32,000 bases of DNA from Candidatus Electronema aureum (GTDB lineage Bacteria; Desulfobacterota; Desulfobulbia; Desulfobulbales; Desulfobulbaceae), in contig NQJD01000005.1 of NCBI GenBank assembly GCA_004284765.1, positions 60,001 to 92,000 of the forward strand, read 5' to 3'. The notes beneath the pieces are model-generated. The model was not told where the DNA came from, made no database searches, and saw only the letters and a program-made list of their open reading frames with translations. Of this stretch, positions 2,294-22,324 are shown in pieces; positions within the stretch are counted from its first letter, which is position 1; each line of letters starts with the position of its first letter. The position numbers and the translations under genes were made by a program.

Positions 2294-3991
2294 TTAGTTG
2301 GAACGGGTCCTGTTGATGATGAAAGCCCTCAAGTCTTGCGGGACACTGAAACCGGCATGAAGAATTGCCGTGTATGTCTTGTCCGCTTCCTCTTGTCGGC
2401 CCTGCTGATCCTGGATGCGAGCACGAGAAACCATAGAATCCAAATCTTCTCCGTACAACTCGCTGTATTTGTTCAGCAGCCGCAAGGCTGCATCATACTG
2501 TTTTTGCCGCTCACTGAATACTGCGTAACTAAACAGAGCTTCCCGACTTGGCTTGCTCATGCTGATACTTTGATCAAAATACTGTTGCGCTTGGCTGTTC
2601 TCTTCCATGTTGGCATGACCAATCGCCGCATTCAGAGCTGCACTGCCGTTTTTCTTGTCAATGGCAAGTGCTTTGTTGGCGTAATAAACTGCCTTGGCAT
2701 TTTGATTGAGTTTAACAAGATAGATAGAAGCTATCCTGTTGGCTAACTTGCCTTTTTCCTTTTTTTCTACTTTCTCCGGCCAAACATCAAACGCTTTTTC
2801 ATAAAGCTGAACAGCCGTTTCTACGCTGCCCTCTTTTTCTGCCTTGATTGCCAAAGCTGCAATTTTTTTTGCTTCCATAGCTTCTGGCGGCACTGCCTGT
2901 CCATCACCCTGCGTGATGACAATAGGAATACCTTTGCTGTTCGTTTTTCCAGCGTCCACTGTGTCGATATTCAGCGAAGATTCCGCTGCTGACCTCTGTG
3001 GCCAGACAAATTCCTTGCTCTTAGGATAAATGACAATGGTGTTGTGCCGTTGCTCTTTGGCTAAATCTTTTAAATTTAGAATGATGTCTAAGACAAAATC
3101 CCAAGGAACTTCGTGCAAAGCAAGGGTTAAAGTGCCAGCAACGCCTTCAGATACAATAATATTGTAACCGCTGATTTCTCCCAAGAGACGGAATACATTA
3201 TGCAGATCAACCTTATAAAAATCGACTGTGATTAAACTACTGTCCGCCCCAGCTAAAGGAGAGGTCGCCGCAGCAGGCCCTGCTGCGGTCGAGCTGCCGC
3301 CGAAATTTCCAGCGTTTTTCATGGTCGGATTCACCGGTGGCAGATGCGCTTCAAGAGATTCGCCACTGGGTGTGCTATTTTTCACCTTATTTGTATCAAC
3401 AGGAGCTGAACTGGTCGCTGGAAGTGACAAAGGCCCAGTGCCTCCTGCTGGAGACTGCTCTTTGAAAAAATTCACAATAACTAAAATGACACTATTTTCC
3501 TTTAAGCTGGATGTATATGAAGAATACGGCTCTGGAAAATCAAATTTTAATCGCAACCGATCAATTCCATCCTCTATTTTTGCTGAACTGTTAAGTACAA
3601 CATTAAAAACTTTTAACGAACTCAAATCTGCTGACTTCTGCATCTCCGTATTAGCGATATCAACACTAATACCTTTCCTGTCGCTGCCGGGTAGCTCATA
3701 TACATTTGGCGGAGGTTCTATTATTTTTTCGCAGCGGATAGTAATTTCCAGATTTTTTTCAACCTGCTGCGCACTTATTCCGAGAATGCTGTTTCCTTTC
3801 GCAGCAGGAGCAACTGTTGCACCCGTCTCCTGCTGTTGCGGCTGAACAACAGCGGCTCCAGTGTCCTGAGCGACCGCGTCAGAAGGAATTTTTGTCAACA
3901 AAAGACCCGCAACCGCAGCGGCGGTAAAAAAAAGATGATTGCAACTGTATCTGTTGTTTTTCTGACGAGCTGACAAAACGAAATGCGACAT
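2294..3991 (-). CDS. AMIN domain + secretin-N0(STN)-like domain + C-terminal TPR repeat protein (pilus secretin accessory)
   Basis: 565-aa ORF with a signal peptide (FFTAAAVAGLLLTKIPSDAVAQD). It has an AMIN-like segment (NLEITIRCEKII...LRLKFDFPEPY...VILVIVN). It also has a PilQ-N0-type signature (ITVDFYKVDLHNVFRLLGEISGYNIIVSEGVAGTLTLALHEVPWDFVLDIILNLKDL). About 180 aa of TPR-like helical repeats follow at the C-terminus. Domain calls are by eye. Confidence 0.7.
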   Translation of the reverse strand: MSHFVLSARQKNNRYSCNHLFFTAAAVAGLLLTKIPSDAVAQDTGAAVVQPQQQETGATVAPAAKGNSILGISAQQVEKNLEITIRCEKIIEPPPNVYELPGSDRKGISVDIANTEMQKSADLSSLKVFNVVLNSSAKIEDGIDRLRLKFDFPEPYSSYTSSLKENSVILVIVNFFKEQSPAGGTGPLSLPATSSAPVDTNKVKNSTPSGESLEAHLPPVNPTMKNAGNFGGSSTAAGPAAATSPLAGADSSLITVDFYKVDLHNVFRLLGEISGYNIIVSEGVAGTLTLALHEVPWDFVLDIILNLKDLAKEQRHNTIVIYPKSKEFVWPQRSAAESSLNIDTVDAGKTNSKGIPIVITQGDGQAVPPEAMEAKKIAALAIKAEKEGSVETAVQLYEKAFDVWPEKVEKKEKGKLANRIASIYLVKLNQNAKAVYYANKALAIDKKNGSAALNAAIGHANMEENSQAQQYFDQSISMSKPSREALFSYAVFSERQKQYDAALRLLNKYSELYGEDLDSMVSRARIQDQQGRQEEADKTYTAILHAGFSVPQDLRAFIINRTRSN

Positions 3992-4200
3992 TTTTATTGA
4001 TCTCCCTCTTTTTTCAAGCGAATGACCGTTCTCTTCGCAATAATTCTGTCACACAGAATGTGATATTTTTTCATGATACATCCGTCTTTATTTTCATGAC
4101 AGTGTCCTCTCTGCCCCGATTCTTGATCAGTATCCTATCTCAAAAGAACTGTTACGAACAATAATAAATGCAAAATATACGCACCGTATTGACTCATTCC

Positions 4201-4752
4201 TTACTTATCTTCTTCTTTTTTTAAGGTCATTATAATTTCATTATTTATCTCTCTGCCGGATTGCGTTTTACGAATTTCTTGGATAATGACTTGACCATCT
4301 TTAATCATCACTATTTTTCCGTGTTTACCTATGAGTATGTTTTCACGCAGGATATACCCCTTGCCAGCCGTATCTTCTGCCATAGCGATTTTGCTGCCCT
4401 GAACCCCCATCACCGCTACCAGTCTCAACTGACCTGGCTCAAATAAACGCATTCCAGTGAGCCGCTCGTTGTTTTCGTCAATAATCGGGTCTACAGTATC
4501 TTTTTTTTCTTTAGCTTCCTTAGCTATGAACGAATAAAAAGGATCAGGCCGGTTATCTAACTGATATTCAAATTTAGCCCTTTTTCGTCCCTCTCCTGCA
4601 TCTAATGTTTGTTCCGCTGTCGTTGCAGCAGTCTCTGCCTCTACCACAGCGGGAGGAGGCGGTTCTTGAGCTATGGACACCATCACCCGGCATAGTTCGC
4701 CTGTCAGCAGCGTCACTATCAGGAAAGCGTATTTTTTTGAGCTAAACCGCAT
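4201..4752 (-). CDS. pilP: Type IV pilus assembly protein PilP-like
   Basis: 183-aa ORF directly after pilO. It has an N-terminal hydrophobic anchor and a Pro/Ala linker. The C-terminal beta-domain pattern is LRLVAVMGVQGSKIAMAEDTAGKGYILRENILIGKHGKIVMIKDGQVIIQE, typical of PilP. Confidence 0.7.
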   Translation of the reverse strand: MRFSSKKYAFLIVTLLTGELCRVMVSIAQEPPPPAVVEAETAATTAEQTLDAGEGRKRAKFEYQLDNRPDPFYSFIAKEAKEKKDTVDPIIDENNERLTGMRLFEPGQLRLVAVMGVQGSKIAMAEDTAGKGYILRENILIGKHGKIVMIKDGQVIIQEIRKTQSGREINNEIIMTLKKEEDK

Positions 4753-4801
4753 TGCATCTCGCCCGCTTTTTTTGTGTTTTTGAAAAGCTACGCCCCGCCT
4801 G

Positions 4802-5431
4802 CTACTTCGCTGCCGCTGGTGGAGGAGCCGCCGCCTGTCCCGTATAACGATAGGTCAATAAGTTACAGGAGGAGTTGAGCATTATGTCTCCATCTACTTC
4901 CTGAGGGCCGCCCATGTTGATGTTGTTCACTGTCACCAAGCGTTCCAGCCCGCTTACTTCACCAAGAAAATAACCTACATTATGATACGGCCCTCTGATT
5001 GATATACTGATTGGGATTTCAGCGTAAAAATCTTTTGGTGTTTCAGTTCCCGGTACAAAAGAGATAAAATCTAAACCTGCCCTTTTTCCAAGATCGGAAA
5101 TGCTCCGCAACAGAGCAGGGATTTCTGGACCTTTTGGAAGAATCCCCGATATTTCTTCAAATTTTTGCGTCGCTCTTTTAAGCTCTTCTCTATGGTGGTC
5201 GATGTTCGCTGCTGCGGTTTCTGCTTCTTTTACTTCAGCATCCAGTTTGCTTTTTGTCTCTTCCAGTGTAGCTATTTCCTGCTGCGTTGGATTATAAAAG
5301 AGAAAAATAAAAGCAGCTATCGGCGCAATGATTAATCCTGCTGCCAAAGCTATTTTGACATTTTTTTTCCACGGAATATATTTTTCGTTAACAAATTTAT
5401 CAAGCTGTACCGCAAATTTTTCCGAAGCCAT
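4802..5431 (-). CDS. pilO: Type IV pilus assembly protein PilO
   Basis: 209-aa ORF with a single TM helix, a coiled coil, then LPKGPEIPALLRSISDLGKRAGLDFISFVPG...YAEIPISISIRGPYHNVGYFLGEVSGLERLV (PilO signature). Its position between pilN and pilP fits. Confidence 0.85.
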   Translation of the reverse strand: MASEKFAVQLDKFVNEKYIPWKKNVKIALAAGLIIAPIAAFIFLFYNPTQQEIATLEETKSKLDAEVKEAETAAANIDHHREELKRATQKFEEISGILPKGPEIPALLRSISDLGKRAGLDFISFVPGTETPKDFYAEIPISISIRGPYHNVGYFLGEVSGLERLVTVNNINMGGPQEVDGDIMLNSSCNLLTYRYTGQAAAPPPAAAK

Positions 5432-5448
5432 GTTGTCCTGAGCCTTGT

Positions 5449-6060
5449 TCAGTTTTTCTGTGCTGTAGCCGCTCCCGGCCCTTCTGGAGTTGCTTCCTTT
5501 TCTTTCTCTGCTTCAGGCATTGCAGCAGTACAAGAGAGAGTGAAACTCTTCAGACTTCTTCCTCCTTGCGCCGCAGTCAATGTAGCATTGACCAGCTTTA
5601 CTTCTGAGATGTATTGTGATCCATCCAGCTTGTCAAGATATTCCGCCACGGTCTGATTGTCCAAGGCAACACCACTCAGATTCAGAGCGGTACCGCTCTG
5701 GTTAAAGGAAGTCAACCATAGTCTCTCGTTCGGCGTAACATTGGCGACTTCATCCATAATATGAGCAGTCAGCGCGGAAGATTTCTCTACATTTTCAATC
5801 AAAGCAGTCTGTTTGTCTATGGCATCTTTCTTTTGCTTTAGTTCTTCAATCTGCTTTAATATTTCTGCGAGTGCCGTTTTTTTCTGTTCAAGATTGGCGA
5901 TATCAGTCTTTAGGCCGCTCACTTTTCCGCTCAGATGAAGGAAAGCTAAAATCAAAATAACAAGTAATGCTGCGAAAACAGCACCGAATATCTTCAGCTG
6001 CTGCCACGCAGCAGCCCGCTGCTTGATTTTTTTGACTGGCAGGAGGTTAATCCGCAGCAT
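5449..6060 (-). CDS. pilN: Type IV pilus assembly protein PilN
   Basis: 203-aa ORF beginning MLRINLLPVKK (the classic PilN INLLP motif), followed by a TM helix and coiled coil. It starts 3 nt after pilM. Confidence 0.85.
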   Translation of the reverse strand: MLRINLLPVKKIKQRAAAWQQLKIFGAVFAALLVILILAFLHLSGKVSGLKTDIANLEQKKTALAEILKQIEELKQKKDAIDKQTALIENVEKSSALTAHIMDEVANVTPNERLWLTSFNQSGTALNLSGVALDNQTVAEYLDKLDGSQYISEVKLVNATLTAAQGGRSLKSFTLSCTAAMPEAEKEKEATPEGPGAATAQKN

Positions 6061-6063
6061 GGC

Positions 6064-7113
6064 TCAAAACTCCGCCGGACGGATGGCAAGTCCGGTTGCG
6101 ATGGACATTTCAGGAGCAGCAACCTTCAGATATTCCATATCAATTTTTTTACTGATCTTCATGCCTTCAAAAGGATTAAAGGCAATGACCTCCAGTCCAG
6201 TCTCTTTAGCAAGATATTCATGCAGCCCTTGGACTTTTGAACCGCCACCACTAAGTACCAAAGAAACCAGCGGCTTGCCCGGATTGTTGTTTCCGTACAA
6301 ATCAATAGCTTTTTTGATTTCTAACACCCAGCGAGTGCAAATCCGGGTGAAAATACCGTGCAGCTCCTCCATGTCCTCTTCCTTTGCCTGCTGGCGACCG
6401 AGCTTAATCTTCTCCGCCTCCTCGTAGTCAATCTCTAACGTGTTGGCGATTTCTTGGCTAAGATTGTCGCTACCTGTCACCACATCTCGCGCCAATACCG
6501 AAGCACCACCCGCGATGATATTGATGTTCATCTTGGAAGCTCCGATGTCAACCAAGCAGACATTTTTCTCGCTACCCGCGATGGTGTTCCAGATATTTTC
6601 CAACGCAAAGCCATCAACATCTACCAGCACTGGCAGCAGTTTAAGCCCCTCGATCATTTCCAAATAATTGTCGATGACCTCTTTTTTCGCTGCCACCAAC
6701 ATGACTTCGCTGCGCTCTGTTTCGCTTTTAGCCTGCTTGATTACTTGGAAATCAAGATAAACTTCGTTGATATCAAAAGGAATATATTGTTCAGCTTCTT
6801 GGTGGAGCCGTTCATCCAGCTCTTCTTCGTTCTCTATTTCAATGTTGATTTTTTTTACAATCACCGAGTAGCCAGAAATAGAAAGGCCCACTCGTTTGTT
6901 TTTAATTTTGAGATTTTTGAACAATTCGGAAATAGCGGCTGCAACATCCCCGGCATCTTGGAGTACACCGTCATCGACAGAGCCGGGAGAGAGCGCAGCA
7001 GCACCGAGAGCCAAGAGCTGGTAGCCGTTCTTGCCCACTCTTTCTACTTGGCACACTTTCACCGCATGAGAGCCGATGTCAATGCCAACTACGGGGATTT
7101 CCTTTTTTGCCAT
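6064..7113 (-). CDS. pilM: Type IV pilus assembly ATPase-fold protein PilM
   Basis: 349-aa ORF with actin-like ATPase motifs (VVGIDIGSHAVKV, VCLVDIGASKMNINI, LVLSGGGSKVQGL). It is the first gene of the pilMNOP series. Confidence 0.9.
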   Translation of the reverse strand: MAKKEIPVVGIDIGSHAVKVCQVERVGKNGYQLLALGAAALSPGSVDDGVLQDAGDVAAAISELFKNLKIKNKRVGLSISGYSVIVKKINIEIENEEELDERLHQEAEQYIPFDINEVYLDFQVIKQAKSETERSEVMLVAAKKEVIDNYLEMIEGLKLLPVLVDVDGFALENIWNTIAGSEKNVCLVDIGASKMNINIIAGGASVLARDVVTGSDNLSQEIANTLEIDYEEAEKIKLGRQQAKEEDMEELHGIFTRICTRWVLEIKKAIDLYGNNNPGKPLVSLVLSGGGSKVQGLHEYLAKETGLEVIAFNPFEGMKISKKIDMEYLKVAAPEMSIATGLAIRPAEF

Positions 7114-13349: not shown

Positions 13350-14804
<1,455 letters not shown>

Positions 14805-14840
14805 CCCTGCGCGGAAAATCTCAGGCAGAGGTAACGAATA

Positions 14841-15260
14841 ATGGCACAGATTCATCTGGAAGTGGTGACACCCGCCGGGTCAGTGGTTAGCGAGGATGTG
14901 GATATCGTCACCGCGCCCGGCACCAACGGCGAATTTGGTGTACTGGCAAATCACGCGCCTTTTCTGACCACGATTAAAACCGGTGTTCTGCACTACAAAA
15001 AGGACAAGGACGTTAAATATCTGATGGTCAGTGGTGGTTTTGCTGAGGTCTCAGGCAACGCCATCACTTTTCTTGTAGAAAATGCTGAGTACGGCCAAGA
15101 AATTGACGTACCCCGCGCCCTGCTGGCCAAAGAACGGGCTGTGAAACAGCTGGCGCAGGAACAGGCTCATGCGGAGAATATCAACCGCATTTTGGTAACC
15201 TCAGCCCTTCAGCGGGCGATGGCCAGACTCGCTGCGGCAGAACGTACTAAACTACAATAG
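14841..15260 (+). CDS. atpC: F0F1 ATP synthase subunit epsilon
   Basis: 139-aa ORF. LEVVTPAGSVVSEDVDIVTAPGTNGEFGVLANHAPFLT is the typical epsilon N-terminal beta-sandwich. It is the last gene of the operon. Confidence 0.92.
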   Translation: MAQIHLEVVTPAGSVVSEDVDIVTAPGTNGEFGVLANHAPFLTTIKTGVLHYKKDKDVKYLMVSGGFAEVSGNAITFLVENAEYGQEIDVPRALLAKERAVKQLAQEQAHAENINRILVTSALQRAMARLAAAERTKLQ

Positions 15261-15291
15261 CAGTCAATACGCCGGAATAGCTGTGAGCAGC

Positions 15292-15325
15292 AAGGGCCGC
15301 CCATTCGTTGGGGCGGCCCTTTTTT
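15292..15325 (+). terminator. Rho-independent terminator of the atp operon
   Basis: An 11-bp perfect stem, AAGGGCCGCCC (15292-15302) / GGGCGGCCCTT (15311-15321), with an 8-nt loop, running into a T-tract (15320-15325). It lies 32 nt after the atpC stop. Confidence 0.85.
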
Positions 15326-15370
15326 GTGCAACGGAGATAGATCACCTGCATAACTTCGATAGTTATTTAT

Positions 15371-15487
15371 CTATCCTTTGATCACCGCCAGCGGCAGCAG
15401 GCTCACTTCAGCCGCCACCAAATCGCTCTGATTTGCCATCACTGTCTCAATATTTTTGTACGGGCCGAGAGCTTCGTCAAGGTCTTT
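15371..15487 (-). pseudogene. rtcB: Displaced 3'-terminal remnant of rtcB (last ~38 codons plus stop)
   Basis: By manual alignment, 117 nt match the real rtcB 3' end (16987-17103) at about 100 of 117 positions without gaps. The minus-strand translation is KDLDEALGPYKNIETVMANQSDLVAAEVSLLPLAVIKG*. The intact gene reads KDLDEAPGSYKDIETVMENQSDLVDIAVSLLPLAVIKG*. There is no upstream coding continuation. Confidence 0.8.
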
Positions 15488-15512
15488 TTTGCAGCAAGCG
15501 GCAGAGCGGTCT

Positions 15513-16157
15513 TCAAAGGTCGAGCATTTTCAGCAAGTCCGGGGCATCTTCGCAGGCCAGTTCCGCCAAGGCATAGAATTCGGACATGGCGCTGTCCAAG
15601 GCATCTGTCTTCTCATCCCGATCCTTTGTTGCCTGCTGGGCTTCGCCGGTTTCTTTAGCTTGAATGATGTTGGCCTGTTCCGCTGCAACGACCAAGGCCT
15701 TTGCTGCGTTGACGGCATCCGGCGGGGTGTTGTACTGGCTGTATTTTGCCAAGGCATTCTGATCACTCAGGAGATTGCTGAAAAAGGTGTTGGCTTGGGC
15801 CAGCCAGCCGGAAAAGGTCCGCTTGCGCTCCTCGTTCAGGGTCAGCTTGATAAAGATGGCGTGGTTATCCCGGAACAGAATCCGCCCCAGCCGGATCAGG
15901 CGCATATAGGTGTCATGGGCGGTCTTCCAAGCCTGCTCAAAGGCGGCGGTGGCGGCGTGCTGCTCGCTGTACTCGGTTTTCTGGGCAAGATAGAGGTCGA
16001 AGGCCTGCTGCCGCTGCGCCAGCATCTGATTGAGTTTGTCCGGGGTGTAGCCGTACAGAGCGACCCGGCTTTGCAGCTCCGGGACATCGCGGGCATTGGT
16101 GAGGCCGGTCAGGTAGCGATTCAGGCGGTCTTCGATGGAATGATACGGGGCTGGCAT
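15513..16157 (-). CDS. Hypothetical all-helical protein (214 aa), cassette gene 2
   Basis: The ORF has a strong RBS (AGGAGG, 6 nt before the ATG). Its composition looks protein-like and helical, unlike the overlapping plus-strand ORF. I recognise no motif. Confidence 0.6.
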   Translation of the reverse strand: MPAPYHSIEDRLNRYLTGLTNARDVPELQSRVALYGYTPDKLNQMLAQRQQAFDLYLAQKTEYSEQHAATAAFEQAWKTAHDTYMRLIRLGRILFRDNHAIFIKLTLNEERKRTFSGWLAQANTFFSNLLSDQNALAKYSQYNTPPDAVNAAKALVVAAEQANIIQAKETGEAQQATKDRDEKTDALDSAMSEFYALAELACEDAPDLLKMLDL

Positions 16158-16437
16158 AGTGTCCTCCTGAATTGGGTTGAGGGAAGAATTTCCCGGATGA
16201 TGAGCGGGTGCAGCAGGAGAAAATGGCGTTGCAGTGCTGCGGAGCCGTTTTCTCCCGCTGCGAAATGACTTTTTCCTGTTGCAGGATGAGTTCTGCCTGC
16301 TGTAGAGCCTTTTTCTCTTGCTTTAGTGCGATTTCTGCCGCTTCGGGAAGGGTTTTTCTCAATGCAGTGAGAGAGTCTCCTCTTGCAGAGGGAGTTTTTC
16401 TCGGTGCGGTACGTTATTCGTTGAGCGATGACAACAT

Positions 16438-16875
16438 TCACTGGAAAAGGAGAAATTTCTTGAAATGTATAAACCAGCTTTCCGGTTGCGGTTTAATACT
16501 AGCTATCACTTTAAAAGAATCTTTATGAGAAGCCTCGAATTTTCCTAATTCTTCCCATTTATTAACTTTTTCATAATCAAATGGATCCGATAAGTAAATG
16601 TGACGAATTGTGTCTAAAAACACATCCTGACTAAACGCTGAACTTTTTGCAAGAATTTCAAGAACAGCGGGGTCTATATTATCATTGTGTTTTTCTTTAT
16701 ATAGTTTATATGCATTTTGGACGGCACCAGTAGCATTATTTGCCCTAGCATGTAGATCCCATGTTTGTGAATGCACAAGTTTTTTCAGCTGACTATTTTT
16801 TATCCCCTGATAAATTCCATACACAAAACTTAATGTTGTAATAACTAAACCAGTTATAGTCCAAATATCAGGCAT
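16438..16875 (-). CDS. Hypothetical protein with N-terminal TM helix (145 aa), cassette gene 1
   Basis: The ORF has an RBS (TAGGAGT). The N-terminal sequence IWTITGLVITTLSFVYGIY is a TM helix. By eye it is markedly more AT-rich than its neighbours, suggesting foreign origin. I recognise no motif. Confidence 0.55.
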   Translation of the reverse strand: MPDIWTITGLVITTLSFVYGIYQGIKNSQLKKLVHSQTWDLHARANNATGAVQNAYKLYKEKHNDNIDPAVLEILAKSSAFSQDVFLDTIRHIYLSDPFDYEKVNKWEELGKFEASHKDSFKVIASIKPQPESWFIHFKKFLLFQ

Positions 16876-16986
16876 GTTTTACTCCTATTGAAAAAGTATC
16901 AATGTGTTCTACCGACTACCCCCAAAAGCTCCTGCACCTTCTCCCCGGCCACAAGATGTAAAACAATTGCGGAAAAATCGCAAGAC

Positions 16987-17947
16987 CTATCCCTTGATCA
17001 CCGCCAGCGGCAGCAGGCTGACCGCGATGTCCACCAGATCGCTCTGATTTTCCATCACCGTCTCAATATCTTTGTACGAACCAGGAGCTTCGTCAAGGTC
17101 TTTCTGATTGCGGATGCCGTGCACCACGCCGAGCGCGTCCAGCCGCTCCACTTCGGCCTGCAAATTCAGCTCGCGCTGGGCTTGGCCGCGCCCCATCTTC
17201 CGTCCTGCGCCGTGACTGCACGAGCAGTAACTTTCCCTGTTCCCTTTGCCGATGACGATGAAGCTGCGGCTGCCCTGCGAGCCGGGAATGATGCCAAATT
17301 CCCCGGCAAAGGCGCGGGTGGCCCCTTTGCGGTGAATCAGCACTTCTTTGCCGAAATGCTCCTCCATTGCTGCGTAGTTGTGGGCGATGTTGATGAACTG
17401 CGGAAACTCAACCGCGCCAACAACCTCCTGCACCGCTGCCTTGACCCGCTCCATCATCAGCTTGCGGCTGGCAAGGGCGAAATCCACGCACCAGCTCATT
17501 TCCGCCAGATACTCCTGCGCCTCTTGCGTCTCCAGCGGCAGAAAGGCAAGCTCCCATTTCTTCGGCACCTCGCTCCGCCACCGCTCGTTCAGACTGACAG
17601 CCAAGCGGTTGTAGTGCTCCGCCACCTTCAGGCCGATGTTGCGGCTGCCGGAGTGAATCATCAGCCAGACATGGCCGTCGTCGCCCTGCTGCATTTCGAT
17701 GAAATGATTGCCCCCGCCCAAGGTGCCGATCTGCTTGCAGCCCGCCTCGAACTGCTCGCGGACAATGGATTTTTCCACGCCGTCCAGCCGGGCCGGATCG
17801 GGCATCAGGCTTCTGTCCTGCTGCCGCTTGTGGTGGTCAAAGCCGACTGGCACCGCTGCCCGGATCAGGCCGAGAATCTTTTTCAAGGTTTCGCGGTCAA
17901 GGCCGGGCAGAGAAGTCTGCACGGCGCATACGCCGCAGCCAATGTCG
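16987..17947 (-). CDS. rtcB: RNA 3'-phosphate/5'-OH ligase RtcB, exon 2
   Basis: The reading frame extends upstream of the ORF-track start to (G)DIGCGVCAVQTSLPG. It contains RtcB hallmarks GGGNHFIE, IHSGSRNIG, AHNYA and SCSHGAGR. Exon 1 (212 nt) plus exon 2 (961 nt) gives 1173 nt, or 390 codons plus a stop. Confidence 0.9.
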
Positions 17948-18689
17948 CCTTAGTCCGCATGTTTTCATGCGGCGTGGACTATACCTTCATCCCGGTCTCA
18001 GGAATTAACAGTTCCTCGCGGGAGTCCGCCGTGTTAACAGCATCCCAGTCCCAATGCACCAGCCGATGGCAGTTGGCGCACAACAAGTCACATTTGGCAG
18101 CCTCTTCACGTATAGCAGGCAGGCTGTATCTGTTGACAGAGTTGTTGTTGAGATTAAACAGTTTTTCCGAAGCGTCACGATGGTGAAAGTCAAATATTGC
18201 TGTGCACTCTCCATCGAAATCAAGTCCGCACAATAAGCATTTTCCGCCAGCCTCGATGATAAGCTGTGCTTTGATGCTGTGAGTGCGGATTTTTTTGTAT
18301 TTTTGACGCTTCGGCCTGTTCCGGTGATTCCATTCACGTTTATACTGGCGCGGATCATCATATTTTCGATTGTTATGACCACTGACATACTGCTTGTCAC
18401 GGCCATAACGATCCTTTGATTTAATGACAGTGCCGCAGCCGCAAGCACATGGAACCTCTGGGGCTTCGTTGTAGATGCGGTCGAAATATCGCTGTTTTAT
18501 CTGTTGTGCTGTCAGTTTCATTTCAACGCATCTGCAACATTTTTGCTGTTCTGCGGCCCTGTCTGTTGCAAGGCCGCAAGTCTCTGAACCATTTGACTGC
18601 GTCGCCGCAGCCTCTGGCTGCTGATTGCCATGTCCTTTCGGATTTAGGGTTCCAGCAATTGAGCGGATTTAACGGGGGCCGATCAATTA
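17948..18689 (-). mobile_element. Group I intron (742 nt) carrying an HNH homing endonuclease ORF, inserted in rtcB
   Basis: All sequences are read on the minus strand.
- P1: exon GGGGGU pairs with intron GCCCCC (intron nt 11-16), giving a U.G pair at the cleavage site.
- P10: exon 2 CGA pairs with UCG immediately 5' of the guide.
- The last intron nucleotide is G.
- Core elements resemble the classical P/Q/R/S set: TCAATTGCTGG (18652-18662), AATCAGCAGCC (18616-18626), GGTTCAGAGACT (18579-18590) and AAGGTATAGTCC (17976-17987).
- GNRA-capped hairpins are UCC-GAAA-GGA and GGCUGCG-GCGA-CGCAGUC.
- The 3' hairpin is CCGCATG-AAAA-CATGCGG. Confidence 0.85.
17979..18521 (-). CDS. HNH homing endonuclease (intron-encoded)
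   Basis: 180-aa ORF with an N-terminal Cys cluster (CACGCG...GH). The HNH motif is CLLCG...FDFHHRD...N...CANCHRLVH. It lies wholly inside the rtcB intervening sequence, and its stop codon overlaps the S-like element. Confidence 0.85.
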   Translation of the reverse strand: MKLTAQQIKQRYFDRIYNEAPEVPCACGCGTVIKSKDRYGRDKQYVSGHNNRKYDDPRQYKREWNHRNRPKRQKYKKIRTHSIKAQLIIEAGGKCLLCGLDFDGECTAIFDFHHRDASEKLFNLNNNSVNRYSLPAIREEAAKCDLLCANCHRLVHWDWDAVNTADSREELLIPETGMKV

Positions 18690-18901
18690 ACCCCCACAGC
18701 GTTTGGAATCACCGCGCCGTCGCAGGCCAGCACGCCGCCAATGGGCATTCCGTAGCCTTCGTGGGCATCGGGCATGAGCGCCACGTGGCGGAAGGTGAAG
18801 GGGTGATTGGCCAGATTGCGGGCCTGCGCCAATGCGCCCGCCTCCATGTCGTCAAGCCAGAGCTTAATCGGCCTTTTTTCCGAGTCTATGACCTTTTTCA
18901 T
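18690..18901 (-). CDS. rtcB: RNA ligase RtcB, exon 1
   Basis: MKKVIDSEKRPIKLWLDDMEAGALAQARNLANHPFTFRHVALMPDAHEGYGMPIGGVLACDGAVIPNAVGV matches the RtcB N-terminus layout (MPDxH...G.PIGGV...IPxAVGV). In the genomic sequence the frame hits a stop 2 codons later. Confidence 0.9.
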
Positions 18902-19024
18902 GCTATTCAGTTTAATTGAGGAGCATTTTCGTTTTTTGTAGCCCCTGTAGCTCAGGCAACACTGCGCCTTGTTGATCGCTAAAATACCTATCTGTCGCCG
19001 CAGAATCGTTTTGATGCACAGGAA

Positions 19025-19049
19025 AGCAGCCGAAAAAATTCCGGCTGCT
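19025..19049 (-). terminator. Possible terminator hairpin downstream of the cytochrome c peroxidase gene
   Basis: An 8-bp stem, AGCAGCCG / CGGCTGCT, with a 9-nt loop, 15 nt after the ccp stop. The U-tail on the minus strand is weak (UUCC), so confidence is low. Confidence 0.35.
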
Positions 19050-19063
19050 CAAGTCAGGCCCGA

Positions 19064-20059
19064 TTACTCTTCAAAGGGCTTAGGCTGTGGGGTTTTATCT
19101 GAAGAAGGCGGCAACATCGGCAGGGTAAATGCAGGTTGATCGCCAGTCAAGCTCTTGAGGAAGGCGACAATCTGTGCGTTCTCCGTATCGGAGAGCTTCT
19201 TGCCGAGCTGGAGACGACCCATGACATCCACTGCCTCAGTCAGAGTCTCCGCTTCGCCGTCATGAAAATATGGATAAGTCAGCTCAACATTGCGGAGATT
19301 CGGCACTTTGAACATGAAACGGTCTTCATCCTTGCCCGTGACCGCTTTGCGGCCCTCAGCCGGACTTTTGGCTTTGTACTCCTCAACCATGCCCATTTTA
19401 TGGAAGGTACCGCCGCCAACAGATTCGCCGTAATGACAGGAAATGCAGCCAAAATCCTTGAACAATTTGTAGCCAGCCAGCTCTTGCTCGGTCACAGCCT
19501 TCACATCGCCCAAGAGCCATTTGTCAAAGCGGGAATTGGGCGTGACCAAGGTTTTCTCAAATTCTGCAATAGCATCTGTCACTCGGTCGATATCAATTTT
19601 GTTATCACCAAAGACTTGCTTGAATTCAGTTACATAACCGGGAATGGAAGTCAAAATACCTTCCGCCAGAGCATGGGTTAAGGCCATCTCGCCGGGGTTG
19701 GCAATCGGCCCGCCCGCCTGCGCTTTCAGACTGTCAGCTCTGCCGTCCCAGAACTGGACAAAACTGAGGCTGGAGTTGAGAACGGTTGGCGCGTTGATCG
19801 GCCCTTTCTGCCAGTTGTGGCCGATAGAAGTTTTCAGGTTGTCCGAACCACCTATGCTGAGGTTGTGGCAGGAGTTGCAGGAAATGAAGCCAGATTTGGA
19901 CAGCCGGGGGTCAAAAAAGAGCTTTTTGCCCAGCTCGGCTTTCGCTTGATTGATCTCCTTGGGCGGGGTGATTGGCTTGATCGGCTCCTCTGCCCACGCT
20001 GCTCCAGCGGTTGTAGCCGCAAGAAAAATGACTGCTGTGACACATTTTTTTACTGCCAT
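19064..20059 (-). CDS. ccp: Di-heme cytochrome c peroxidase (CcpA/MauG family)
   Basis: 331-aa ORF with a signal peptide and two heme motifs (CNSCH and CISCH). The conserved blocks FFDPRLS, APTVLN, FWDGRA and PNLRNV are present. Confidence 0.9.
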   Translation of the reverse strand: MAVKKCVTAVIFLAATTAGAAWAEEPIKPITPPKEINQAKAELGKKLFFDPRLSKSGFISCNSCHNLSIGGSDNLKTSIGHNWQKGPINAPTVLNSSLSFVQFWDGRADSLKAQAGGPIANPGEMALTHALAEGILTSIPGYVTEFKQVFGDNKIDIDRVTDAIAEFEKTLVTPNSRFDKWLLGDVKAVTEQELAGYKLFKDFGCISCHYGESVGGGTFHKMGMVEEYKAKSPAEGRKAVTGKDEDRFMFKVPNLRNVELTYPYFHDGEAETLTEAVDVMGRLQLGKKLSDTENAQIVAFLKSLTGDQPAFTLPMLPPSSDKTPQPKPFEE

Positions 20060-21080: not shown

Positions 21081-21908
21081 TCATGCTACAGCAAGGAAGG
21101 GACGCATTGCCGCATCACTGCGGGCGATATCCATCAGTGTTCGGTCGTTGCAGTTGAGAATGACTGCGTCTAAGCCAGCAGCGGCCAGCAAAGGCAGCAG
21201 CCGATGGTGGAAGGCTGGGCGTTTAGCCGCAGGCAGAAAAGTGGAGGCACTGGACAGTGCCAGCAGTGAAGGCACTTTTTCTTGGCTCAGAAGCGGCAGA
21301 GCGGCAAGAGTTTCCAGCACCGGATCAATGTCCGGCAATCCTTGACGAACAGGATCAGGGCTGGGACGAAAAAGCGGATCAACGTAGAGTTTTTTCAACG
21401 GAAAATTGGTGCGAGTTGCAGTTTCCAACACCTCGGCAGCCAGCTGGAGCCGGTCATCCGCCGTAAAGGGCGAGAGACCGGGCCGAGCCAGCAGCACCAC
21501 CAATTTAGCCCCGCAGTCCCTTACTTTTTCCATGTCAGTGGCTAAAGTCATCGGATCAGCGGTCACAGAGTTGACAGTCAACTTATCCCCGTGTTTCCGC
21601 AGCAATGCGGGTTGGGACAAAATCTGAGAGGCAACAAACAAAGGCAGCTGCGTTGCTGCCAGAATGGTCTCAACCGCCCAAGTGAGCAGGCCACCGTTTT
21701 TCTTGGCCGGGCCGAGGTTTAAATCCAAGGCATCAGCCCCGGCCTCTGCTTGCCGGACAGCTACAGCTGCCAGCGCACGGCTATCTCGCCCCTCAATTGC
21801 CCGGAAAAATAACGGATTCATGATCTGCATGTCTTGGCCGATGAGGCGCAAGGCGTTCCTCTCTCCGTCGGTATTCCGGCGGGCTTTTTCTTGTTCAAAA
21901 AATATCAT
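21081..21908 (-). CDS. Stand-alone pterin-binding domain protein (methyltetrahydrofolate methyltransferase / MeTr-MetH-like)
   Basis: 275-aa ORF with a strong RBS (AAGGAGAA). LIGQ...AIEGRDSRALAAVAVRQAEAGADALDLNLGP resembles the start of the pterin-binding TIM barrel. ...NSVTAD... and a degenerate SNxSFG-like block (LSSASTF), followed by AAGLDAVILN, are also present. Assignment is by eye. Confidence 0.6.
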   Translation of the reverse strand: MIFFEQEKARRNTDGERNALRLIGQDMQIMNPLFFRAIEGRDSRALAAVAVRQAEAGADALDLNLGPAKKNGGLLTWAVETILAATQLPLFVASQILSQPALLRKHGDKLTVNSVTADPMTLATDMEKVRDCGAKLVVLLARPGLSPFTADDRLQLAAEVLETATRTNFPLKKLYVDPLFRPSPDPVRQGLPDIDPVLETLAALPLLSQEKVPSLLALSSASTFLPAAKRPAFHHRLLPLLAAAGLDAVILNCNDRTLMDIARSDAAMRPFLAVA

Positions 21909-22037: not shown

Positions 22038-22082
22038 ACCTCTCTCCTTTCCTCGAAGGGGATTAAGTGGGATGGTGCGTTG

Positions 22083-22292
22083 TCGGCAGGTTTTCGGACT
22101 TACGGACAAGCAGGCAAAACGCCTACGGGCCTACTAACCGTCGCTTCCCGTACCTTTCGGCACAGTGCTTTTCCTTGTTCAAGGAGACGGTGTTCGTTTC
22201 CGCTTACCGCTGCGGGACAGTCCCGGTTTTTCACCGGATTCCCTGTTGGCTGCCCTGCTCAATTCAGCAGGACAGCGTGCCACGCTTCCCAT
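22083..22292 (-). promoter_or_regulatory. Cobalamin (B12) riboswitch
   Basis: Three stretches read on the minus strand match the conserved core, B12-box region and 3' pseudoknot element of the cobalamin riboswitch as I recall the consensus: AACAGGGAATCCGGTGAAAAACCGGGACTGTCCCGCAGCGGTAAG, GCACTGTGCCGAAAGGTACGGGAAGCGACGG, and GTCCGAAAACCTGCC. An upstream hairpin CCTGCT-gaatt-GAGCAGG is also present. Confidence 0.8.
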
Positions 22293-22324
22293 GAAGCGTA
22301 CCGACAGCCATTATGATGATGGAT

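Follow-up and report, generated by a model that had tools for sequence, protein, structure and literature searches.

Why does the genome of a cable bacterium carry the end of rtcB, a housekeeping-type RNA-repair gene, twice, with other genes lodged between the two copies, and which of the copies is the original? We addressed these questions in a 32,000-nucleotide (nt) stretch of Candidatus Electronema aureum (contig NQJD01000005.1, positions 60,001 to 92,000), called the window throughout, in which the last 117 nt of rtcB (16987-17103) recur in the same orientation at 15371-15487. Comparison with related loci indicates that the distal copy is the displaced native end of the gene, and that the proximal copy, the one in use, would have come with inserted DNA that also brought a gene for a 214-amino-acid (aa) protein of the PQLLE family. 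The insertion was probably the work of host recombination with a small circle. All features of the block lie on the minus strand unless stated otherwise.

The repeat itself is robust. A repeat search found one direct repeat of 117 nt, ungapped, 85% identical and with a start-to-start distance of 1616 nt, and MAFFT agreed with this alignment; an exact count gives 100 of 117 identical positions, bearing out the approximate figure in the first-pass annotation, which had staked its reading on this similarity being significant. In a self-BLAST of 14800-19200 the pair scored 135 bits, against 24.2 +/- 2.0 bits (maximum 30.1) in 200 dinucleotide-preserving shuffles. The closed genome GCA_942492785.1 (OW818638.1) has this repeat structure too, as do independent Logan assemblies of two runs (SRR14559660 and SRR14559659), so it is not an assembly artefact, and a homologous form of it occurs in at least five other lineages. 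Since a score of 135 bits stands against a shuffle maximum of 30 and the structure recurs in the closed genome, the independent assemblies and at least five other lineages, we attach next to no credence to chance similarity or misassembly as its source.

Translated on the minus strand, both copies give an RtcB C-terminus followed by a stop codon (...KDLDEA.G.YK.IETVM.NQSDLV...SLLPLAVIKG and stop). The proximal copy (16987-17103) is the working 3' end of rtcB, as its translation and its counterparts in relatives agree; it is identical to that of Candidatus Electronema sp. JC, 97% identical to that of Candidatus Electronema sp. TJ (locus L007) and 96% identical to that of locus L008. The distal copy (15371-15487), hereafter the remnant, comprises 39 codons and TAG, and begins 25 nt past the stop codon of the 214-aa gene; the open reading frame (ORF) layout shows no gene body upstream of it, just as had been described at first pass. 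Among the 17 nucleotide differences between the copies, eight are packed into 12 nt; at the codon level there are 12 differences, of which 5 are synonymous only and 7 non-synonymous. At the very end of the gene the two copies share a 26-nt block without a mismatch; it is conserved coding sequence, and it varies in the remnants of other lineages. With its 39-codon frame still open, the remnant in the window is the most complete scar of its kind that we found. As a separate observation on the gene end, a segment in the 5' part of rtcB (17817-17842) is 88% complementary over 24-26 nt to the extreme 3' end of the gene (16994-17017 and 15376-15401). This stretch is conserved in relatives, its antisense ...CTGCTGCCGCTTGTGGTGGTCAAAG contains CTTGTGG, and the complementarity possibly reflects long-range pairing within the mRNA or chance.

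Which copy is native can be read from related loci, which we reached by two routes. The closest RtcB proteins led to two loci without the insert, in Candidatus Electronema sp. PJ (L217) and on the metagenome contig Ga0394878_0006714 (L218). The closest relatives of the 214-aa protein lie in TJ and JC, in the Desulfobulbaceae metagenome-assembled genome S01.Bin068 (S01) and on several metagenome contigs, and gave the filled loci TJ, JC, S01, L008 and L009. In all of these filled relatives rtcB lies upstream of the 214-aa gene and an rtcB-end fragment follows directly after it. At the two empty sites rtcB is followed immediately by a gene for a 348- or 354-aa protein and a convergent gene for a 547- or 555-aa MORN-repeat protein; in TJ, JC, S01, L008 and L009 the remnant is followed by these same 350-aa and MORN-repeat genes. 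When empty and filled loci are aligned by BLAST, the match continues unbroken from the remnant into these two downstream genes: position 7055 of PJ, which is position -118 of rtcB, aligns onward to position 6669 of JC, the first base of the JC remnant, and position 1382 of L218 aligns onward to position 3396 of TJ. The sequence after the stop codon of the remnant in TJ and L009 is homologous to that after the stop codon of rtcB in L218 (ACTGCTTGCAGTCCGGCCCTGCTTGTGGCACCG compared with AGTGCTTGCAGTTTGTCCCTGTCTGTGGCACGG). By comparison, the 38-nt trailer that follows the working end (16949-16986) is near-identical across the filled loci and unlike the native trailer found after the remnant and at the empty site; it contains a weak terminator-like hairpin (16983-16967) and ends in ATCTTGTGG.

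The remnant and the DNA downstream of it are thus collinear with the rtcB end and the following genes at the empty sites, which identifies the distal copy as the displaced native end. On this comparative evidence, the distal copy is the original end of rtcB, now a pseudogene fragment, and the DNA from the trailer of the working end through the 214-aa gene is inserted. The locus has the hallmarks of an insertion that supplies a surrogate gene end, namely a 3'-end duplication that brackets the insert with the upstream copy completing the gene, and an empty site with a remnant collinear with native DNA. The first-pass annotation had proposed such a footprint and suggested comparing synteny among related rtcB loci, with uniformly filled relatives as the outcome that would speak for a tandem duplication artefact. 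That comparison supports the footprint: the insert is absent from L217 and L218 and present in TJ, JC, S01, L008 and L009, the remnant aligns without a break into native genes, and the two trailers differ. The native downstream neighbour of rtcB in relatives, as read at L007 4573-6204 and L017 7873-9504, is a 543-aa protein with about 20 MORN repeats. Between strains with rtcB-PQLLE blocks that are 92-97% identical, the MORN-repeat and 350-aa genes reach only 77-81% identity, a divergence that could reflect either fast evolution of these genes or more recent exchange of the block.

How old is the scar? The supposition of a recent event particular to this genome gave way on comparison. The junction, in which the stop codon of the 214-aa gene is followed by a 25-nt piece (AGACCGCTCTGCCGCTTGCTGCAAAA, 15488-15512, hereafter x) and then by position -117 of rtcB, is common to the window, JC and the locus L219, and the remnants of the window and JC have six derived substitutions in common. 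Other lineages carry the remnant eroded to 65, 42 or about 35 nt: TJ and L009 keep its last 65 nt, L008 has lost 17 more nt between GCGGTC repeats, and in S01 a deletion that ran from CTGCCGCT in x to a second copy of this octamer near position -30 accounts for the form observed. The forms in TJ and L009, in L008 and in S01 are thus each explained by one deletion from the ancestral form, two of these deletions falling between short direct repeats. Among filled lineages the flanking genes share 77-81% identity, compared with 70-74% to their counterparts in the empty-site genomes. Given the shared junction, the single-deletion variants and these flank identities, the simplest reading is one old insertion in the common ancestor of one Candidatus Electronema sub-clade. 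We also considered that the different remnant lengths mark independent insertions or two nested rounds, and dropped this because one ancestral form with lineage-specific deletions is simpler. At most positions where the two copies in the window differ, the working copy matches the outgroups in our reading of the alignments, so that the 15% divergence is mostly owed to decay of the remnant; the cluster of eight changes in 12 nt is specific to the genome of the window.

The surroundings have changed as well. In this genome the block is flanked by a cytochrome c peroxidase gene and atpC, its upstream neighbor also differs from that of relatives, and the block is rearranged relative to them; E. 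halotolerans and L219 show yet other contexts of the locus. L219 (JGI Ga0643526_0004412, 2708-5497) is heavily rearranged: it has kept just the last ~174 nt of rtcB with the trailer, after which come an IS66-like transposase fragment, a 471-aa gene, a 5' fragment of thiC fused in frame to the 3' part of the PQLLE gene, x, and then a remnant of the JC type. The locus is, to judge from these arrangements, a rearrangement hotspot.

The inserted DNA differs in ancestry from the gene that received it. The PQLLE protein of the block is 81-85% identical in amino acid sequence to Electrothrix-type copies and 65% identical to the PQLLE protein of Electronema sp. PJ, whereas RtcB shows the opposite relationship (85% to PJ, 63-65% to Electrothrix), and these opposed identities argue that the insert is foreign to the lineage. 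As to how it entered, direct copies of the target surround the insert, the upstream one joined to the gene body and a foreign trailer and the downstream one to the native flank, and a single reciprocal crossover between the chromosome and a circle carrying the rtcB end produces exactly this topology. Campbell-type insertion of this kind is familiar from suicide plasmids and integrative vectors, where a direct duplication of the shared segment brackets the insert and host homologous recombination suffices. The present locus has the same directly duplicated segment around the insert, with the upstream copy on the gene body; unlike in vector integration, the circular intermediate and its homologous crossover are here what we infer, not what was seen. 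To our knowledge, natural Campbell-type islets fixed at the end of a protein gene through speciation are not a described class.

We consider it probable that the ~1.6-kb insertion arose by a single homologous crossover of circular DNA carrying homology to the rtcB end. The DNA fragment would have come from a related donor in which cargo and the PQLLE gene already followed rtcB. It would have closed to a circle, joining the PQLLE end to position -117 of rtcB, and the circle would have entered the resident rtcB end through one homologous, Campbell-type crossover, leaving two direct copies around the insert. The incoming order would have been its own rtcB end with the 38-nt trailer, which kept rtcB intact, then an accessory slot, then the PQLLE gene with a 21-nt repeat array. 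Afterwards point changes wore down the remnant here, and deletions shortened it in sister lineages, while the slot was presumably re-filled repeatedly, in this genome by an AT-rich 145-aa gene of mobilome origin, and rearrangement of the flanks would have brought the block to its present place between the cytochrome c peroxidase gene and atpC.

An integrase would leave the same picture as host recombination. The nearest described case is the insertion of e14 and phage 21 into the isocitrate dehydrogenase gene icd. In E. coli, e14 is a 15-kb element that excises and reintegrates site-specifically; the working icd gene runs into the e14 prophage, with icdC as a C-terminal pseudogene at the far end, so that the inserted DNA supplies a slightly different 3' end, and the two copies can recombine to give back one chimeric gene (PMC13626634, which cites Hill et al. 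1989). The likeness to rtcB is close: in both, the insert brings a replacement 3' end that keeps the gene intact, and the displaced end becomes a pseudogene fragment beyond the insert. An islet with an rtcB-end-like phage attachment site (attP), integrated in this manner by a tyrosine or serine recombinase now lost or supplied in trans, is accordingly a possible explanation, and one that we consider unlikely. Its strength is the topology, identical to that of icd (duplicated end, working end from the element, pseudogene remnant on the far side; PMC13626634). The 26-nt perfect identity at the extreme gene end would also suit a crossover site, but the block belongs to conserved coding sequence and other remnants have not kept it.

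Three further points led us to favor the host route. In the window, JC, TJ and S01, neither the ORFs of the block nor those up to about 6 kilobases (kb) away from it showed a recombinase domain, in line with the earlier remark that the interval holds no integrase. At ~1.6 kb the insert is very small. And another PQLLE locus, L019, repeats the architecture with another target sequence altogether: a 111-nt, 90% identical direct repeat of the PQLLE array (1283-1393 and 2292-2402), whose first copy ends abruptly at the join, brackets an insert made up of a 3' fragment of a DUF3368 toxin gene, a cassette leader also found in the window and an AT-rich 144-aa gene. This difference in target favors, from the sequences compared, a process that would be driven by homology and not by a specific site. 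The rtcB islet departs from e14 in its size (~1.6 kb), in having no recombinase in or near it, in its old and eroding scar, in the piecemeal exchange of its cargo, and in that another locus of this build has duplicated a different target.

Several observations weigh against a homologous crossover with a circle, or against the identification of the native end on which it builds. The native downstream genes are not beside the remnant in this genome, so that the identification rests on relatives. No donor-type locus (rtcB, cargo and PQLLE gene with no remnant), circular form or excised site was found among close relatives. A scan of metagenome DNA with an unspecific 20-mer from the gene end gave 120 loci, all of them unrelated. 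The two copies seem to have been nearly identical at first although their trailers are very different, which calls for a very close donor with an altered trailer or for later gene conversion. The lack of a donor or circle and the near-identical copies with differing trailers fit the site-specific alternative as well. In both the window and L219 breakpoints lie at or near the end of the remnant, and the 9-mer ATCTTGTGG recurs at cassette borders; recurring breakpoints and a border motif could reflect site-specific activity in trans. Finally, comparison by eye shows x to be identical at 18 of 22 positions to the start of the short remnant of S01 and similar to the rtcB tail CTGCCGCTGGC. One possibility is that x is itself an older, second remnant; insertion would then have taken place more than once, with repeated use of the site, a better fit to a site-preferring process. 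Alternatively, x may be part of the 3' untranslated region of the donor.

Another way to a duplicated end would be homology-facilitated illegitimate recombination of linear DNA, or a segmental duplication made in situ that foreign DNA overwrote at a later time. At the right junction (PQLLE stop, x, position -117) there is no homology, as an illegitimate join would have it; the near-identity of the copies at the start also suits this reading, and so does a rearrangement-prone locus with an IS66-like fragment and gene fusions in L219. One-sided events of this type, however, usually delete recipient sequence next to the anchor and do not duplicate it, and a duplication in situ leaves the foreign trailer, the Electrothrix-type PQLLE gene and the empty sites unexplained. 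We regard this pair of routes as distinctly improbable.

The rtcB gene itself is interrupted, which had suggested a role for its intron. Exon 1 (18683-18901; Pfam PF01139, E-value 1.2e-15) and exon 2 (16987-17946; PF01139, E-value 5e-84, collinear with the uninterrupted rtcB of relatives) join to a spliced gene of 1173 nt, the same length as in relatives, and PF01139 is matched once the exons are joined. The probable group I intron between them (17955-18699) matches Rfam RF00028 over the full model span with 40.3 bits (E-value 4.8e-8), below the gathering score of 50, and contains an HNH endonuclease ORF (17979-18521; PHROG HNH match, 2e-21). It sits in the region encoding the conserved ...NAVGVDIGCG... 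and is precisely absent from all relatives examined; the HNH ORF and this clean absence support the assignment. Exon 1 is 83-87% identical in nucleotide sequence to relatives and exon 2 93-95%; in the comparison with JC, identity is 87-88% in exon 1 and over roughly the first 100 nt of exon 2 and rises to 92-98% in the remainder, a divergence beside the intron that suggests a putative co-conversion during homing. The first-pass annotation had raised the possibility that repair of a double-strand break made by the HNH endonuclease imported the heterologous flanking DNA, and the presence of this intron in the same gene, together with a diverged tract that could be a co-conversion tract, is what speaks for it. 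That proposal fails on the relatives: TJ, JC and S01 have an uninterrupted rtcB and yet carry the same insertion and remnant. Moreover, the intron lies ~850 nt upstream of the repeat, and the only step in divergence within rtcB adjoins the intron and not the gene end. We judge it very improbable.

Known element classes that leave duplications or cassettes were also compared with the block. A diversity-generating retroelement was rejected since the block has no ORF of reverse-transcriptase size and no Pfam match to one, and the mismatches between the copies are not adenine-specific (A at 5 of 17 in the distal copy). Nor is it an integron: there is no IntI-like protein, and the cassette borders carry ATCTTGTGG after a T-rich stretch, although no formal scan for attC structures was made. 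The target duplication of a transposon does not fit either, since the 117-nt repeat is much longer than such duplications and no terminal inverted repeats were seen.

The DNA enclosed by the two copies is not a single unit. The block had been described as a two-gene cassette; the PQLLE gene and its array are constant across the filled loci examined (truncated in L219), while the 145-aa gene is specific to this genome and occupies a variable slot. Homology with relatives breaks off at 16949 and is regained at 16371 or 16297, which places the slot (16372-16948) between the end of the trailer and the outer edge of the array. In the window it holds a GC-rich leader (CCGGGGAGAAGG...) and the 145-aa gene (16438-16875). 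In TJ and JC it holds a UPF0175 antitoxin-like gene and a 281- or 304-aa gene; in L008, genes for UPF0175, DUF3368 (PADLOC PDC-S70, 1.9e-37) and a 170-aa protein with a weak match to two-transmembrane (2TM) effectors; in L009, a gene for a 274-aa protein matching PDC-M11B (3e-20); and in S01, a HigA-like antidote and the 304-aa gene.

The 145-aa gene is AT-rich, as annotated, with 32-36% GC compared with 55-62% around it. Its protein had also been credited with one transmembrane helix; the N-terminal hydrophobic stretch stays below the Kyte-Doolittle threshold of 1.6, so that this part was not borne out, although such a helix remains plausible as a prediction from the sequence. The family comprises 11 clusters, and relatives elsewhere sit among genes for a HigB toxin, AbiEi, Fic, a type IV secretion system coupling protein and a plasmid replication protein; these mobilome neighbors and the 33% GC of the gene fit a separate, later arrival.

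The speculation that the cargo serves in stress or phage response found indirect support. The slot in relatives contains PADLOC candidate-defence and toxin-antitoxin genes, but PADLOC had no match for either the 145-aa or the 214-aa protein of the window, matching only the cargo of relatives. As in defence islands, small and unrelated cargo varies from strain to strain between conserved flanks, here the rtcB end plus trailer on one side and the PQLLE array on the other, and several cargo genes of relatives match PADLOC candidate families (PDC-S70, PDC-M11B and 2TM effectors). Unlike defence islands it is tiny, with one to three genes, one of its flanks is a repeat array and not a core gene, and the cargo in the window has no defence match. 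The GC-rich leader CTTGTGG[A/C]CGGGGA[A/G]AAGG is common to cassettes in the window, L008, L019 and S01, whose ORFs are unrelated (AT-rich, 145, 144 and 170 aa). The 9-mer ATCTTGTGG stands at cassette borders after the rtcB trailer and after DUF3368, and the related CTTGTGG occurs 28 nt past the native rtcB stop codon. Borders with (AT)CTTGTGG after a T-rich stretch were seen at 16949-16957 in the window, at 591, 1361 and 2901 in L008, at 1603 in L019, and at 1295 and 3465 in L016; the motif could be a recombination site, or merely shared flanking homology.

The most interesting thing found, incidental to the question of the duplicated gene end, is the PQLLE gene with its conserved 21-nt array. 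The 214-aa protein (gene at 15513-16157) is a member of NCBIfam NF052641, "PQLLE family protein" (E-value 7.8e-59; 198.9 bits, cut-off 80; residues 5-212 of 214), with its C-terminus ...APDLLKMLDL corresponding to the PQLLE motif. Pfam, PHROGs and PADLOC gave no match for this or the 145-aa protein, and NCBIfam gave only the PQLLE name. AlphaFold2 models the 214-aa protein as all-helical, in agreement with the first-pass description, with a predicted local distance difference test (pLDDT) score of 94 and two long helical hairpins that, in the model, look like an internal duplication. Of the structure searches that had been suggested, those with the PQLLE protein returned only generic coiled-coil matches (the Protein Data Bank by sequence, and Foldseek against it with the model; E-values of 0.07 or more), and the model of the 145-aa protein (pLDDT 58) was too poor to search. 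Homology between the window and relatives covers 16371-15510, that is, the PQLLE gene and ~214 nt upstream, and ends 2 nt past the stop codon; the gene is 92-93% identical in nucleotide sequence to the TJ and L009 copies.

The 280-nt spacer between the 145-aa and 214-aa genes (16158-16437) had been noted for its repeats, and these turned out to be a trait of the PQLLE family. Within it, the leader of the PQLLE gene (16158-16420) contains a degenerate array of CTGCAnnGAGAAAAAC-like 21-nt units, a hairpin of 14 base pairs (bp) at ~16211-16259 and a ribosome-binding site. A lag of 21 is the top autocorrelation lag of the array, its RNA fold has a z-score of -3.4, no Rfam family matched the spacer, and the array is homologous to those upstream of Electrothrix-type PQLLE genes. 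Almost every PQLLE gene examined (loci L013 and L019-L089) is preceded, 70-300 nt upstream, by a tandem array with a period of 21, 42, 63 or 84 nt and 3-18 copies; we counted 55 arrays in 41.9 kb upstream of PQLLE genes versus about 21 in 571 kb elsewhere. The unit varies by lineage around a common core, RRAAAATGAY with C at position 21, and an inverted copy of this core, which forms a strong hairpin, terminates the array in cable bacteria and a few other phyla. The family is large, with 3,476 clusters at 50% identity at an E-value of 1e-3 or below and 1,124 at 1e-30 or below, from Bacteroidota, Chloroflexota, Calditrichota, KSB1, cable bacteria and others. No conserved neighboring gene or protein partner was found across it, no member was found among PLSDB plasmids or INPHARED phages, and our literature search returned no paper that mentions PQLLE, or RtcB together with cable bacteria. 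PQLLE modules do not generally duplicate the end of a neighboring gene: the only other long flanking repeat, in L069, consists of two paralogous sorting domains of the type IX secretion system, and the short repeats are similar to repetitive extragenic palindromes or to the arrays.

By its layout the array looks like a candidate protein-binding array, and our guess is that the PQLLE protein binds it and regulates itself. Arrays of direct repeats beside a small protein gene are known from iteron plasmid replicons and from the ParR/parC centromere. The PQLLE module is like an iteron-plus-operator or ParR-parC arrangement in its tandem direct repeats of about two helical turns (21 nt) just upstream of a small protein gene, and like an iteron-plus-operator in the inverted core copy after the repeats in cable bacteria and some other phyla. 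Unlike those systems, the modeled protein has long helical hairpins and no winged-helix or ribbon-helix-helix fold, and the module is chromosomal, absent from the plasmid and phage collections searched, with no partner ATPase and no replication evidence; the resemblance may serve as a lead only. A bolder idea, which we put forward as a long shot, is that the PQLLE gene and its array form an autonomous, previously unrecognised chromosomal module that in cable bacteria acts as a landing pad, swapping small defence or toxin cassettes by short-homology single crossovers, with PQLLE binding the array to promote or regulate the exchange. If so, cassette capture would have left both the rtcB-end duplication and the array duplication of L019 as its footprints.

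Beyond the remnant, the genome-specific right flank of the block is marked by the hairpin terminator of the convergent atpC gene (15292-15321, plus strand; an 11-bp stem followed by a T run), which possibly acts in both directions; relatives carry the 350-aa gene in this place. Elsewhere in the window, a cobalamin riboswitch (22068-22320, minus strand; RF00174, 84 bits, E-value 1.4e-19) lies upstream of a minus-strand 275-aa ORF (21081-21908).

As a class of event, the gene-end insertion scar is known, and a long-lived islet with a swap-slot and no integrase is a variant of it. Here a very small islet of this kind has settled at the 3' end of a housekeeping-type RNA-repair gene and left the gene intact, and the empty sites and the series of decaying remnants show that the islet persisted through speciation while its cargo turned over. 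Scars of this form are useful for annotating "orphan" gene-end fragments and for finding variable defence slots in hard-to-culture genomes such as those of cable bacteria. The ~215-aa helical PQLLE family, named only by a motif and almost always accompanied by a 21-nt array, offers a testable hypothesis of a sequence-specific protein-array pair. In freshwater cable bacteria, the scar at the end of rtcB marks a small swap-slot for defence-like genes beside this widespread, uncharacterised gene module.

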